A stretch of 64,000 nt of DNA from Alphaproteobacteria bacterium. GTDB taxonomy: Bacteria; Pseudomonadota; Alphaproteobacteria; JBFXJJ01. Shown piece after piece: positions 16,795-63,250 of this stretch (positions within the stretch are counted from its first letter, which is position 1; each line of letters starts with the position of its first letter). Where the stretch lies: positions 224,001 through 288,000 of the forward strand of contig JBFXJJ010000001.1 of the NCBI GenBank assembly GCA_050175015.1, written 5' to 3'. The notes under the pieces were generated by a model that was not told the DNA's origin, searched no databases, and worked only from the letters and a program-made list of their open reading frames with translations. The position numbers and the translations under genes were made by a program.

Positions 16795-19479
16795 ATGAAC
16801 AGTAATATTATTATTCAATTAGCAGACATTTTTGGTGTTGAACTTCGTGCAACGGAACAAGAAAAGTTTACAATGCTTCAGAAGATGGAAATATTGCCAC
16901 CGCAGGGAAATATGTCAGATGCTGAGTATGATAATATTCTTAACCAGACATTAAAGAATAAGCTTGATTCTGATTACTTGGCAGTTATGAAACCTGTAAC
17001 GGTTACACGCGAAAATCGCCAAAATCAAATAGAATTATCCATACCTGTTAACCGCACCAACGAATCAATTAATTGGAGAATAGAGCAAGAAGACGGCAAA
17101 GTAATGGAAGGCTCAAGTCCTATTTCCGAAATGCAGCCTGTGCTTAAATATGGTCAGCCACAAACTCACGAAGTTAATGGAGTCGTTTATCAGAAATTTG
17201 CTTTTGAAAAACCTCAAGGTGTAGATGTCGGTTACCATAATATCACCATCGCAACTCCAGATGGTCGTCAGCAAAAGTCAAACTTGTTCCATTGTCCACA
17301 ACAATGTTATGTTCCACCAGTAATTGAAAATGGTGGAAAAATTTGGGGTATGCCTGTTCAGGCTTATCAATTACGCAGTCCTTCAGACCAAGGCGGCGGC
17401 GGCGATTTTTCAAGCATTGATGAAATGGCTCATAATATTGGTACCCAGGGCGGCGCTTTAATTGGTTTGCCTCCAATGCACGCTATGTTCTCTGAACGTC
17501 CTGAAGACGCCAGCCCATATGCTCCTAGCAGCCGTGAATTCTTTAACTATCTTTACAGCGATGTTACCGCTATTCCTGAATTTAATAACAGCAAACGTGT
17601 TCAGGACATCTATGACTCCCCAGAGTTCACTACTCAACGTCGTAGATTACAACGAAGAATGTGGGTTGATTACGCCGATGTTAAAGATCTTAAACAACAA
17701 ATTTTAAACGAATGCTTTGAAGAATTTAAAAATAATGAACTTGGTAAAGGAACGGAAAGAGATAAAGAATATCAAAAGTTCTGTTCTCAATGGAATGATA
17801 AAGATGATGGTAGCTTATATAACTTTGCAACTTTCCAAGCTCTCTCCGAATATTTCTGTTCTAAAGAGTGGACAGACAAAGGTAATCCAAAATTAGAATA
17901 TATGTCCGATTGGCCAGAAGCCTATCAAGATATGCACACCAAAGAAGTAGAACAATTCAAAAAAACCCACGCCGATCGTATCGATTTCTATAAATACACC
18001 CAGTTTGAAGCTGACAGACAACTTGCTAATGTTAAGGAAACCTGTAAAAAATCAGGTATGACGGTTGGCGTTTATACCGATATTGCGGTTGGTTCTTCAC
18101 CAACTGGTTTTGAAGCTTGGGCTAGAAAAGATGATTATATGAAAGCATCAGCTGGTGCTGCTCCTGACGGTCTTAGCATTACGGGTCAAAATTGGCACTT
18201 AATGGGCTTTAAACCTCACAAATTGGTTGAAAAATCATATTCTCAGTTTGTTGGTATGCTTAGAGCAAATATGAAACACGCTGGTTGCGCTCGTTTAGAT
18301 CACGTTTTACAGCTTAGCCGTCTTTATATGATTCCAGACGGTAGTCAGAACCGCGGCGGAACTTTCGTTTATTATCCAACCGATGATTTAATGTCGTTGG
18401 TTGCTCTTGAAAGCCATCGTAATAAAACTATGTTTATTGGTGAAGATATTGGTCAGTGTCCTGATGGTTTCAGAGAAAAAATGGCAGACTATGGTATTCA
18501 CCGTTATGGCGTGCTTTGGTTTGAAAGAGAATGGGGTTTCCAAAACGGTGATTTCAGTCCTCAAGCTAACCGCATTAAAGATCCTTCTGAATTTCCAACG
18601 ATTTCAGCTTGTGCATTATCAACACATGATACACCTCCAGCAGAAGGTCAGAATACTGGCGAATATGTATGGCAAAAAGATGCTTGGGGTTGTTATGAAA
18701 ATGATCAGCAAAGACAACTGGAAATTAATCAGTACAAAACTTTTAGAGCAGCAATTAACGATGCTTTAGAAAGAACAGGTTGTTATGCTCAAGTTGGTGG
18801 TCAGAGAGCTGAGAGATCTTTTGAGGAACCTTTTGATATTAATAAACAGAAGCATATTCAGGCTGAAGTTGCTTATCTTGCTAAAAGTAATTCTAATATT
18901 GTGTTGATTCCTCCTTCAGATGTTACAGGAATCACAGCTCAGCACAATATTCCTGGCACAGGTGAAACTCAGTCATTCCTTGATCCTGAAAATATGAATA
19001 ATAGTGAATATAAAAAGGATTATGAAAGAGAAGATTCTGGTCCAAACTGGAGAAGAAAAGAAGTATTCAAAACACACGAACTTAATAATATTGAATTGTT
19101 CAATGAATGCGCTAAGATTTTAAGAGATAGTGGTAGAGGCAATCCTGAAGCTGCTTTAGATTATGAATATAAGAGACCAGGAAGAAACGAGCATTTAGCA
19201 ACTCAAAATAGCAATGAAAACAAAAAAGCTTTCTTTGAAACAGCGAGATATTATGAACAGAGAGGTGAAGAAAGTATCAGAGCTATGTATGGTCAAGAAT
19301 ATCAAGATAACTTAAAGAAACTTAACGATGGTATGAAAAACCAGACCGAAGAAAAACGTAGAAAAATTGAAGAATGGAAAAAATTAAGCTTACAACAGCA
19401 ACAACAACCGCAACAAGCGAAAAGACCAGTTGTTAATGCTACAGTAAAACAGGCTTTAATGGGCAGAAGTCCAAGGTAG
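16795..19479 (+). CDS. malQ: 4-alpha-glucanotransferase (amylomaltase, GH77) with long C-terminal extension
   Basis: WG..VQ.YQLRS, GDFS, SPYAPSSR, DIAVG, RLDH, GEDIG, THDT and NIPGT...PNWRRK motifs. ATG at 16795 follows GGAG/AAGG. Confidence 0.88.
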   Translation: MNSNIIIQLADIFGVELRATEQEKFTMLQKMEILPPQGNMSDAEYDNILNQTLKNKLDSDYLAVMKPVTVTRENRQNQIELSIPVNRTNESINWRIEQEDGKVMEGSSPISEMQPVLKYGQPQTHEVNGVVYQKFAFEKPQGVDVGYHNITIATPDGRQQKSNLFHCPQQCYVPPVIENGGKIWGMPVQAYQLRSPSDQGGGGDFSSIDEMAHNIGTQGGALIGLPPMHAMFSERPEDASPYAPSSREFFNYLYSDVTAIPEFNNSKRVQDIYDSPEFTTQRRRLQRRMWVDYADVKDLKQQILNECFEEFKNNELGKGTERDKEYQKFCSQWNDKDDGSLYNFATFQALSEYFCSKEWTDKGNPKLEYMSDWPEAYQDMHTKEVEQFKKTHADRIDFYKYTQFEADRQLANVKETCKKSGMTVGVYTDIAVGSSPTGFEAWARKDDYMKASAGAAPDGLSITGQNWHLMGFKPHKLVEKSYSQFVGMLRANMKHAGCARLDHVLQLSRLYMIPDGSQNRGGTFVYYPTDDLMSLVALESHRNKTMFIGEDIGQCPDGFREKMADYGIHRYGVLWFEREWGFQNGDFSPQANRIKDPSEFPTISACALSTHDTPPAEGQNTGEYVWQKDAWGCYENDQQRQLEINQYKTFRAAINDALERTGCYAQVGGQRAERSFEEPFDINKQKHIQAEVAYLAKSNSNIVLIPPSDVTGITAQHNIPGTGETQSFLDPENMNNSEYKKDYEREDSGPNWRRKEVFKTHELNNIELFNECAKILRDSGRGNPEAALDYEYKRPGRNEHLATQNSNENKKAFFETARYYEQRGEESIRAMYGQEYQDNLKKLNDGMKNQTEEKRRKIEEWKKLSLQQQQQPQQAKRPVVNATVKQALMGRSPR

Positions 19480-19500
19480 TTTTTCTTAGAGTTTAAGTTA

Positions 19501-61382: not shown

Positions 61383-61411
61383 AACTAAAAATAGGGAAAA
61401 AAGAGGAACAA

Positions 61412-63250
61412 ATGACTGAAAATAGAGTAGATATTTTAAGAAAAGAGCTAAAAAATCAAAAGATTGATGGTTTTATTATTCCTCACGGTGATGAGTTTCG
61501 TTCAGAAAATCTGCCAGAAAGTTCCAAACGATTAGAATGGCTCACAGGATTTTCCGGTTCTGCGGGGACGGCAATTGTTTTAGAAGATAAAGCGGTCTTA
61601 TTTGTTGATGGCAGATATACTCTACAGGCTCCTAAAGAAGTTGACACTAAAATTTTTGAAATTGTCAATGTGTCGGATAAATCGCCAGCCGAATGGATTG
61701 CTGAAAATCTTGGAAAAGATAAAGTTGTTGGCTATGATTCGTGGCTTCATACTACCAATGAAGTAGAGCGTTTTGAAAAAGCGTGTAAAAATGCAGGAGG
61801 CAGTCTTAACTCTGTTGCTAATGCCGTTGATGCCGTATGGAATGACCGCCCAGCAGCTCCTAAAGGAAAAATTTTTGAGCATCCTTTAGAATTTTCTGGG
61901 GTTCAAAGCGAGTATAAAAGACGCAAAATAGCATCTGATATGAAAAAAGATAAAGTCAAAGCCGCCTTTATAAGCGATCCTTCATCTGTTGCTTGGCTTT
62001 TAAATATTAGAGGCAGTGATGTTGATTTTTCACCGCTTCCATTGTCTTTTGCTGTGCTTCATTCTGATGCCAGTGTTGATTTATTAATTGATAAAGACAA
62101 AGTCGATGAAAAAACCGCAGAGTATCTAGGGGATAAAGTTAGAATTGTTCCAATGGATAAGATCGATACTTTAATGAAAGACCTGGCTAAAGGTGATGAA
62201 GATCAACGAATTCAAATAGATAGTGGTTCTGCACCTTCAAAAGTATTAGAGATACTGAGGCAAAATCAGGCTAGAATTAAAGATGATGCGGATCCTTGTC
62301 AACTTCCTAAAGCGTGTAAAAATAATGTTGAAATTGAAGGTTCTCGTAAAGCGCATATTAAAGACGGGGTTGCGGTTACCAAGTTTTTAGCTTGGTTTGA
62401 AGAGGCTGCCACTAAAGAGAATTTAACAGAAGTTGATGCGGCGCAAAAACTAGAAAGCTTTAGAGCTCTTGATAAGGATTATCGAGGCGCAAGCTTTGAA
62501 ACAATCCCAGCAACAGGGGCAAACGGAGCAGTTGTGCATTATCACGCTTCAAAAGAGCATAGCAGCACAATTAAAAACGGAGATGTCTTTTTGCTTGATT
62601 CAGGAGGGCAGTACCCTTTCGGTACAACTGATATTACTAGAACCGTAATTGTTGGAAGCAAGGCAAGTGATGAAGAAAAATCTAGATATACTGCGGTTTT
62701 AAAAGGTCATATAGCCTTAGCTGCGGCTCGTTTTCCTGAAGGCACAACGGGCAATCAGTTAGATGTTTTGGCTCGAAAAGCGTTGTGGGACGAAGGGCTT
62801 GATTATGCGCATGGCACAGGTCATGGCGTTGGAAGTTATTTAGAAGTTCACGAAGGTCCGCAAAGCATTTCTCCTCGTGCTGGCAATAAAACACAGCTTA
62901 AAACAGGAATGATTATTTCTAATGAACCTGGTTATTATGAAGAAGGCAATTTTGGCATAAGATTAGAAAATCTAATTTGTGTTAAAGAGCCAAAAGATGC
63001 AGAAAAAACATCTTTAAAGAAATCATATGAATTTGAAACCCTAACTTTGGTTCCTTTTGATAGGAATTTGATTAAAGCTAATGATTTAAGCGACCAAGAA
63101 CTCAAATGGCTTAATGATTACCATAACGAAGTTCAGAAGACATTAGTTCCTTTAGTTGATGAAAAAACAGCGGCTTGGTTAAAAAAAGCAACCAAACCGA
63201 TTGTTAAAAAAAACGTTAAGGCAGCGTTGACTAACAGTCAAAGTCGTTAA
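61412..63250 (+). CDS. Xaa-Pro aminopeptidase (aminopeptidase P, M24B) with C-terminal tail
   Basis: TGFSGSAG, DGRY, DSGGQY, DITRT, HGTGHG, HEGP, NEPGYY and GIRLE motifs; extra VKKNVKAALTNSQSR after the usual family end (WL...TKPI). Confidence 0.93.
   Translation: MTENRVDILRKELKNQKIDGFIIPHGDEFRSENLPESSKRLEWLTGFSGSAGTAIVLEDKAVLFVDGRYTLQAPKEVDTKIFEIVNVSDKSPAEWIAENLGKDKVVGYDSWLHTTNEVERFEKACKNAGGSLNSVANAVDAVWNDRPAAPKGKIFEHPLEFSGVQSEYKRRKIASDMKKDKVKAAFISDPSSVAWLLNIRGSDVDFSPLPLSFAVLHSDASVDLLIDKDKVDEKTAEYLGDKVRIVPMDKIDTLMKDLAKGDEDQRIQIDSGSAPSKVLEILRQNQARIKDDADPCQLPKACKNNVEIEGSRKAHIKDGVAVTKFLAWFEEAATKENLTEVDAAQKLESFRALDKDYRGASFETIPATGANGAVVHYHASKEHSSTIKNGDVFLLDSGGQYPFGTTDITRTVIVGSKASDEEKSRYTAVLKGHIALAAARFPEGTTGNQLDVLARKALWDEGLDYAHGTGHGVGSYLEVHEGPQSISPRAGNKTQLKTGMIISNEPGYYEEGNFGIRLENLICVKEPKDAEKTSLKKSYEFETLTLVPFDRNLIKANDLSDQELKWLNDYHNEVQKTLVPLVDEKTAAWLKKATKPIVKKNVKAALTNSQSR

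Follow-up and report, generated by a model that had tools for sequence, protein, structure and literature searches.

What could four unrelated proteins, encoded within a single stretch of alphaproteobacterial DNA, gain from ending in the same short peptide? The stretch in question (hereafter the window, i.e. the whole 64,000 nucleotides analysed, G000:C1:224001-288000) belongs to genome G000, a 2.53-Mb assembly of 49 contigs with about 35% G+C. A previous sequence-only reading had pointed out a tail, hydrophobic then polar and closed by Arg, on a MalQ-like 4-alpha-glucanotransferase (...TVKQALMGRSPR), on aminopeptidase P (PepP, ...NVKAALTNSQSR), on an orphan with an HExxH motif (...SVANLVNKSKTR) and on a second orphan at position 30715 (...AALNQAMQNQSR), and had proposed that it addresses catabolic enzymes to a type IV secretion system (T4SS). 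Translation reproduced the four ends as written. Our results make it reasonably probable that the tail is a short, non-cleaved C-terminal signal addressing about 50-65 cytoplasmically made proteins to a VirB/VirD4-type T4SS, and that it represents an unusually well-defined new variant of such signals.

In both enzymes, the tail lay past the end of the protein family, as previously stated: the Peptidase_M24_C match of PepP stopped at residue 597 of 612 and the GH77 match of the MalQ-like protein at residue 730 of 900. The exact alignment reported for three of the four ends could be followed by eye, but the MalQ-like protein was its loosest member and required a three-residue offset to meet the consensus (profile score of 2.9 in register and 8.6 when shifted by three residues).

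At the genome level, the tail was far more frequent at protein ends than expected. The analysis relied on the longest non-overlapping open reading frames (ORFs), i.e. 2261 ORFs covering 90% of the genome, whose uncertain start sites are harmless for such a census since C-termini are set by stop codons only. Among the 2034 ORFs of at least 100 aa, 134 ended in Arg and many of these visibly followed one pattern. An anchored 16-residue profile, scanned with a score threshold of 8 over the 2144 ORFs of at least 80 aa, converged on 50 C-termini, where 0.49 were expected from internal windows (145/628,850 at score >=8). Restricting the comparison to windows ending in Arg gave 50/141 at C-termini versus 127/24,339 internally. 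When up to three residues were permitted past the Arg, 54 ends were found at score 8 (2.0 expected) and 68 at score 5 (8.7 expected).

Such numbers might reflect compositional chance in an AT-rich and Lys-rich proteome, or a DNA element repeated at gene ends, the more so since Lys and Arg were generally enriched at the C-termini of G000 and the training set of the profile was made up of the ends that it scored. Leave-one-out scoring and untrained hand rules were therefore used as controls. Leave-one-out scoring retained 27 ends at a score of at least 8 and 34 at a score of at least 5, and the two hand rules recovered 52 ends versus 17.0 expected and 35 versus 3.5 expected (binomial p 3e-23). 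Likewise, the tail was commoner than in shuffled C-termini, as the sequence-only reading required (35 observed versus 13.0 +/- 3.5 with the final Arg kept), and was absent from 381 ORFs of two AT-rich control genomes (see below). At the DNA level, no repeat was common to the tails, the only match being among three tandem paralogues on contig C3, and the terminal Arg was encoded by six different codons, which led us to reject the DNA-repeat artefact. The probability left to chance and DNA artefact together is negligible.

The consensus was composed of L, A, I, V or N at positions -12 to -7, K at -6 and -5, S or N at -4, K or N at -3, S or G (also Q or T) at -2 and R at -1, the latter in 49 of the 50 carriers. 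The tail thus joins a hydrophobic patch with a basic end and is probably unstructured. Net charge of the last 20 residues averaged +3.4 in carriers versus +0.4 in the background, with a depletion of acidic residues (D 2.5%, E 3.9%). A MAFFT alignment of the last 36 residues of 44 carriers, which was gappy and kept out of the statistics, displayed a mean identity of 19% with the final Arg as sole invariant residue.

The 50 carriers spanned about 30 unrelated families and were of a cytoplasmic type. None displayed the membrane-helix proxy (542/2094 in the background) and five displayed an N-terminal hydrophobic stretch (555/2094 in the background), two of these five being low-scoring carriers with signal-peptide-like starts. 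In these respects, the carriers resemble proteins exported in a single step. The Pfam census listed seven DUF6782 putative metallopeptidases, five HAD hydrolases, three pentapeptide-repeat proteins and two M3 oligopeptidases F, together with one representative each of M1 aminopeptidase N (PepN), M24 aminopeptidase P, adenosine deaminase, inosine-uridine nucleoside hydrolase, aldose 1-epimerase, the metallo-beta-lactamase (MBL) fold, NADAR, ankyrin (Ank) and, weakly, TPR; 22 carriers belonged to no family. One further carrier, an AAA_30 helicase, best matched in NCBIfam the C-terminal portion of TraA, a relaxase of the Ti type; T4SS substrates classically include relaxases. Core proteins were rare, as anticipated, and the only clear one was ribosomal protein S3, whose low score (8.8) makes it a probable false positive.

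The sequence-only reading had looked to tail-less paralogues of both MalQ and PepP. One was found for MalQ (contig C2, 30% identity), but PepP was single-copy and thus had no tail-less housekeeping copy. All three PepN, both M3 peptidases and 5/5 close HAD paralogues were tagged, leaving no untagged PepN or M3, and untagged paralogues existed for both the nucleoside hydrolase and the MBL protein. DUF6782 numbered about 14 paralogues, the untagged ones ending mostly in near-variants such as ...AQNKGRG or ...LMRQKGK. The three paralogues of the HExxH orphan were all located on contig C7; one was tailed and two displayed one or two residues past the Arg. Paralogue L035 of this set gave a weak Peptidase_M91 match (E 0.006), below cut-off.

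The tagged peptidases give some weight to another explanation, according to which the tail never leaves the cell and acts as a cytoplasmic tag. It would then serve as a degron, as a handle for chaperones or adaptors, or as a short basic ligand of membranes or nucleic acids, and set the stability or the location of an enzyme regulon in the producer. A single-copy PepP with a tail and fully tagged PepN and M3 sets suggest enzymes needed in the cytoplasm, and a short basic end behind a flexible linker is what many recognition tags look like. Yet we consider this explanation unlikely. The carriers were dominated by expanded, effector-like families without housekeeping role (DUF6782, pentapeptide, Ank, orphans), and the amphipathicity of the tail did not exceed that of other C-termini (hydrophobic moment 0.88 versus 0.94).

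The tail was also encountered next to a T4SS coupling protein gene. On contig C3, a block composed of genes for a 360-aa membrane protein, VirD4-1, a 336-aa protein and a 144-aa protein was syntenic in 5/5 relatives (G055, G329, G018, G198 and G002). The 336-aa protein had 102 homologue clusters at E <=0.001, and the tail was exactly terminal in 18 of 27 aligned homologues (...F-E-x-I-A-x-K-S-x-x-G-R-COOH), reading ...ESTFE[MI]IAQKSS[LM]GR or ...KIALKSMPGR. The other nine, including the G000 copy, displayed three or four extra residues past the Arg. Judging from this alignment, the 336-aa protein, encoded next to the coupling protein, displays the same tail in its purest version.

Several observations suggested that the 336-aa protein may be a nuclease. 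It had no Pfam match, but its residues 150-295 were modelled at a pLDDT of about 90, and the top Foldseek matches, although weak (E >=0.09), were all colicin E7/E9 and pyocin DNases. VIA Z scores of 3.5-5.3 were all obtained on HNH domains (Cas8-HNH, colicins, pyocins, a teneurin toxin-like domain and Rhs2-CT). Residues N231, H235, N250, H260, H264 and D268 were invariant among homologues, and the first five fit an HNH-type site. The 150 N-terminal residues were of low complexity (Q/P/M/N/Y-rich) and varied widely in length and sequence, in contrast to the conserved nuclease domain and tail. The 144-aa protein itself had no Pfam match at E 0.01; 26 of its 50 phmmer homologues matched SMI1_KNR4 (PF09346), and its language-model look-alikes were SMI1/KNR4 proteins (0.97). 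Two more nuclease-like/SUKH-like pairs occurred in the genome, one of them with a tailed nuclease. This organization, an HNH-like C-terminal toxin domain followed by an SMI1/KNR4-type gene, found three times in the genome, resembles polymorphic toxin/SUKH pairs as far as they are outlined in PMC3482391. It differs from them in the strong conservation and synteny of the pair beside VirD4, and in a tag that is a short tail instead of an N-terminal trafficking domain. With regard to the cytoplasmic tag, a carrier that needs an immunity protein is hardly expected, nor is the archetypal tail on a VirD4-adjacent gene with about 100 homologue clusters.

Two membrane proteins of the operon (360 and 370 aa) are paralogues; in each, four helices at the N-terminus are followed by a disordered linker and by a C-terminal domain that is weakly PD-(D/E)xK-nuclease-like. 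For the 360-aa protein, upstream of VirD4-1, fold searches returned only weak PD-(D/E)xK-like matches (E >=0.014) and no fold was assigned.

As predicted, the genome encoded a VirB/VirD4 T4SS, with three VirD4/TraG-like proteins, VirB4, three VirB8, VirB9, VirB10 and VirB11 (Table 1). The best NCBIfam matches of these parts were P-type VirB/VirD4 models, all below the equivalog cut-offs, and the system was accordingly given no T4SS subtype. The locus on contig C4 displayed the order VirB8, a 66-aa ORF, VirB8, VirB9, a 1563-aa beta-flower/RHS-repeat protein, a 1760-aa VirB10 and VirB11, an order that may resemble the rvh arrangement of Rickettsiales. Its VirB10 carried about ten beta-flower repeats ahead of the TrbI domain and its VirB9 gave a weak SPOR-domain match; the outer part of the cluster is unusually large for a VirB-type machine. 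The genome thus has its T4SS, but not where the sequence-only reading had placed part of it: the 586-aa ORF at 51519-53279, presented as a tandem VirB8, belonged to no Pfam family, and a six-frame VirB8 search matched only contigs C4 and C6. By every test run, this ORF is not VirB8, nor, as far as its sequence can be judged, part of the system.

Both main coupling proteins carried acidic ends. All 24 aligned VirD4-1-type sequences ended in a long D/E/W/Y-rich tail, and the acidic C-terminal extension of VirD4-2 was even longer (about 300 residues). The start of VirD4-2 was overlapped by a gene for a 409-aa pentapeptide-repeat protein, and glycogen phosphorylase and three tailed HAD genes followed, the latter at 3-7 kb from VirD4-2. 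The third coupling protein was most similar to Bacteroidetes MobC and its contig perhaps represents a mobile element, or else foreign DNA caught up in the assembly. A predicted complex of VirD4-1 (residues 115-748, with alignment) and the last 40 residues of the HExxH orphan scored 0.01 and 0.00 in runs without controls and speaks neither for nor against binding; lacking a verdict, it provides no physical tie between tail and VirD4, a point for the cytoplasmic tag.

Relatives were searched among 400 other genomes sampled from the same class, all of other orders. Full-length VirD4-1 orthologues (55-74% identity) occurred in 20 of them, all small genomes and many with a second paralogue; those of G002, G055 and G018 were 64-74% identical. 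VirB4 orthologues (65-81% identity) were present in 5/5 relatives checked. The same tails were encountered on sampled contigs of G002, G055 and G018 (e.g. ...NKLIVAQQKRSGR, ...LSPAVLSALSARRSR and ...IANAQSMIKAASISNKQR). In samples of 130-360 kb from these three VirD4-1-positive genomes, 1/115, 3/113 and 3/328 ORFs, respectively, reached a score of 8 with the G000-trained profile. Samples of 200 kb from the AT-rich genomes G014 and G030, where no VirD4-1 match was found, yielded 0/174 and 0/207. DUF6782 occurred in 36 of the 401 genomes, with expansions in a few small-genome lineages. Its members in G002 ended in ...NTAVIMAKAQKGR (i.e. ...AVIMAKAQKGR), and related hydrophobic-basic ends were observed in G055, G018, G198, G329, G224 and two metagenomic homologues.

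Conservation was different for PepP. Among the 27 relatives whose PepP end was read, only G002 displayed a tail (...ASLAKAKVATGR); nine other ends stopped at the normal family end and 17/17 VirD4-1-positive relatives were likewise devoid of it, two more loci that yielded another ORF being left aside. Compared in this way, the PepP tail seems to have been gained late by a housekeeping enzyme. Its presence in G000 and G002 and its absence from the 17 relatives mark it as an add-on instead of a part of the enzyme, which again argues against a cytoplasmic tag.

The tail could still be a signal for an exporter other than the T4SS, either type I (ABC/MFP/TolC) or an undescribed route. Type I signals likewise sit at the C-terminus and are not cleaved off, and PMC4315096, as far as its account goes, has rickettsial relatives exporting Ank proteins in this way; moreover, most tailed genes do not adjoin T4SS genes, and our searches did not take in type I components. 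The same account describes type I signals as stretches of about 60 residues without consensus, rich in LDAVTSIF, poor in KHPMWC and borne by acidic proteins. In contrast, the tails were Lys-rich and the carriers net basic, with KHPMWC fractions of 0.21 (0.19 in the background) and LDAVTSIF fractions of 0.49 (0.53 in the background). A search for the type VI secretion sheath gene gave no TssC match, and the operon link is with VirD4. Another exporter is therefore quite improbable in our opinion.

A different kind of destination was suggested by a family-1 encapsulin shell gene (272 aa, PF04454, E 4e-75) about 7 kb from VirD4-1. Encapsulin cargo-loading peptides are short C-terminal tags after flexible linkers, and the tail might accordingly pack enzymes into this nanocompartment. 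Yet the shell has its own cargo, an upstream 116-aa ferritin-like protein ending in ...SSLGLGKL, a classical motif unlike the tail, and no shell match was found in the five tail-bearing relatives, three of which are 98-100% complete. Fifty cargo species, some above 900 aa, would also presumably be too much for a small shell. The separate cargo motif and the shell-less relatives led us to reject an encapsulin cargo tag, whose probability is very low.

Among known systems, the tail shares several properties with the signals of VirB/VirD4 substrates (Agrobacterium VirF, VirE2 and VirE3, Bartonella Beps), namely an extreme C-terminal position, short length, basic character and occurrence on unrelated proteins in a genome encoding VirD4 and VirB (compared with the portion of PMC10025392 available to us). 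According to that portion, T4SS signals have no general consensus and can be sorted by positive charge or by hydrophobicity, Agrobacterium having an Arg motif, and positively charged C-terminal signals form a known class for VirB/D4 substrates. The tail departs from Agrobacterium signals by a charge due mainly to Lys and one near-invariant terminal Arg, from usual T4SS signals by a much tighter consensus (hydrophobic/small patch and [S/G]-R end), and from Bartonella Beps by the absence of a BID-like domain ahead of it. With the XVIPCD of the X-Tfe effectors of Xanthomonadales, as presented in the sections of PMC8740702 and PMC11253643 consulted, it shares a C-terminal tag defining the effector set, nucleases with immunity proteins and recognition by VirD4 as proposed logic. 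XVIPCD differs in being folded over about 120 residues, versus 12-16 shared residues here, and the present lineage is one of small-genome Alphaproteobacteria. For Vampirovibrio chlorellavorus, an epibiotic predator, T4SS injection of hydrolytic enzymes was proposed (PMC4451040), and both cases combine digestive enzymes that would enter prey by a T4SS with chemotaxis receptors; that proposal, in the part available to us, names neither signal nor substrate set, in contrast to the sequence tag that picks candidates here.

The Dot/Icm (type IVB) signal, by comparison, comprises a Glu-rich block and a hydrophobic residue near the end. The D and E contents given above are unlike such a signal, a comparison of tails that involved no search for Dot/Icm genes. 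No description of the tail was found in the literature searched (supplementary files being outside that search), nor any paper on DUF6782 or on RF32 Alphaproteobacteria with type IV secretion.

The proposal that the tail tags catabolic enzymes for the T4SS hence survives in part. An export-like tag on cytoplasmic-type proteins, in a genome encoding VirB/VirD4, supports it circumstantially; the arguments drawn from a VirB8 in the window and from likeness to X-Tfe ends are not supported. Under a T4SS signal, a flexible Lys-rich linker would present an end of 12-16 residues composed of a small/hydrophobic patch, Lys, [S/N]-[K/N]-[S/G]-Arg and a free carboxylate. This end would be captured by VirD4-1, by its paralogue VirD4-2 or by both, whose long acidic C-terminal tails could attract the basic signal electrostatically. 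The channel would be built from genes located elsewhere in the genome (VirB4, three VirB8, VirB9, the giant VirB10 and VirB11). The putative cargo would comprise the HNH-type nuclease, which has its own SUKH immunity-type protein, as well as peptidases, nucleoside and sugar enzymes, phosphatases and repeat proteins. Such a cargo suggests that delivery kills or disables a recipient cell, whose contents are digested. The sequence-only reading had put forward a host or prey cell as target, with no choice between the two. The nuclease/immunity pair beside VirD4 suggests that bacterial cells can be targets and makes them at least as likely as eukaryotic ones, while the ankyrin and pentapeptide proteins are compatible with eukaryotic targets.

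Several points weigh against export through the T4SS. Export itself, capture of the tail by VirD4 and the kind of cell targeted are argued from association. The gene searches took in VirD4, VirB4 and VirB8 to VirB11, with VirB2, VirB3 and VirB6 outside their range, and most tailed genes were scattered over the genome, away from T4SS genes. The tail is not a domain like XVIPCD or BID and is far shorter. The Agrobacterium Arg pattern, R-X7-R-X-R-X-R, was found in 0/50 carriers and 1/2094 other proteins, so that the likeness to this consensus, and that to the Gln-rich X-Tfe ends, both invoked by the sequence-only reading, were not seen. The contrast between VirD4-1-positive and -negative relatives (7/556 versus 0/381) comes from small samples and from a G000-trained profile that undercounts other lineages. 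In G000 itself, the VirD4-adjacent nuclease carries SADI after the Arg; with 39-81% identity across homologues, it is also unusually conserved for a polymorphic toxin and may rather be permanently associated with the coupling protein. Finally, a purely effector role sits uneasily with the single-copy tagged PepP and the complete tagging of PepN and M3: unless the organism can dispense with cytoplasmic forms of these enzymes, the tagged ones must serve in its own cytoplasm too.

Should the T4SS signal be correct, a broader scenario may tentatively be drawn, although we find it rather doubtful as a whole. A clade of uncultured small-genome Alphaproteobacteria, including abundant gut forms to judge from the source names of some VirD4 homologues ('Azospirillum sp. 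CAG:260', 'Alphaproteobacteria bacterium'), would keep a core-genome T4SS with a C-terminal 'zip code' of 12-16 residues ending in Gly/Ser-Arg. Its members might be epibiotic predators or parasites that inject a nuclease along with about 50 enzymes (peptidases, phosphatases and enzymes degrading nucleosides and sugars), and digest the cytoplasm of their victim from inside, housekeeping enzymes such as PepP being recruited by gaining the tail.

Type IV effectors are hard to predict since their signals lack a consensus, whereas this tag can be recognised from sequence alone and is tight enough for all candidate substrates of an uncultured lineage to be listed. The list is unusual, as plain catabolic enzymes dominate it instead of host-manipulating domains. 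Such a bias points towards nutrition by injection, a habit already suggested for epibiotic predators but to which no signal had ever been linked. Association with a conserved VirD4-nuclease-immunity operon further provides a testable function for a coupling-protein module of many uncultured Alphaproteobacteria and, if the signal is genuine, the tail could serve as a compact delivery tag.

Table 1. Location of tailed proteins, T4SS genes and neighbouring features (plain positions refer to the window, those with a contig label to the assembly)
Feature	Location	Strand	Evidence or remark
MalQ-like 4-alpha-glucanotransferase, 900 aa, 170-aa C-terminal extension	16777..19479	+	GH77 match 195-730, MalQ_N
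MalQ-like end: Q/P-rich linker, then tail VVNATVKQALMGR+SPR	19429-19476	+	Translation
DUF2333-like protein, 346 aa, borderline tail candidate	20823..21863	-	Score 5.6, below threshold
Orphan, 190 aa, no Pfam family, no paralogue	30715..31287	-	Score 18.8
Orphan 30715 tail ...ESKSAALNQAMQNQSR	30718-30765	-	Translation
Methyl-accepting chemotaxis protein	49826-51313	-	
586-aa ORF, no Pfam family above threshold, no VirB8 match	51519..53279	-	Pfam and six-frame VirB8 search
NAD-specific glutamate dehydrogenase	53403-56819		
Methyl-accepting chemotaxis protein	57363-59066	+	
HExxH orphan, 576 aa, no Pfam family, 1 of 4 paralogues	59587..61317	+	Score 18.5
HExxH orphan end: K-rich linker and tail ...KKQPSVANLVNKSKTR	61267-61314	+	Translation
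Aminopeptidase P (M24), 612 aa, genome single copy	61412..63250	+	M24_C match ends 597
PepP tail ...KPIVKKNVKAALTNSQSR, residues 598-612 (15-residue add-on)	63203-63247	+	Profile score 15.5
Ankyrin-repeat protein, 539 aa in genome	63435-63998, past window end	-	Convergent with PepP
VirD4-1 operon	C3:103266-110612		
336-aa HNH-like protein, directly downstream of VirD4-1	C3:104750-105760		
VirD4-1, 748 aa	C3:105910-108156		
Encapsulin shell	C3:115007-115825		PF04454
Encapsulin shell and ferritin-like cargo pair	C3:115007-116162		
Nuclease-like/SUKH-like pair, nuclease tailed	C3:130210/129762		
Nuclease-like/SUKH-like pair	C1:169663/171623		
VirB8 to VirB11 locus	C4:42429-56710		
VirB8 match	C4:54853-55563		Six-frame search
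VirB8 match	C4:55994-56710		Six-frame search
VirB8 match	C6:29616-30587		Six-frame search
VirB4	C9:16403-18898		
Secretin and T2SSE-family ATPase cluster	C9:22606-30651		
VirD4-2 neighbourhood	C16:22010-32946		
VirD4-2, 1013 aa	C16:23239-26280		
Third coupling protein, most like Bacteroidetes MobC	C33:1-5112 (5-kb contig)		NF041326, E 3e-85, below cut-off

Beside the VirB4 locus, secretin and T2SSE-family ATPase genes were found in one cluster, probably a pilus or type II-like system apart from the T4SS. Within the window, the ankyrin-repeat protein near PepP ended in ...ILNILLPRNKRKKKN, which is hydrophobic then basic but does not follow the tail consensus.

The surroundings of the 586-aa ORF were also of interest. 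Its neighbours were two chemoreceptors, one of them with Cache domains, flanking the glutamate dehydrogenase. The organism is thus probably able to sense and swim, which makes a strictly intracellular life unlikely.

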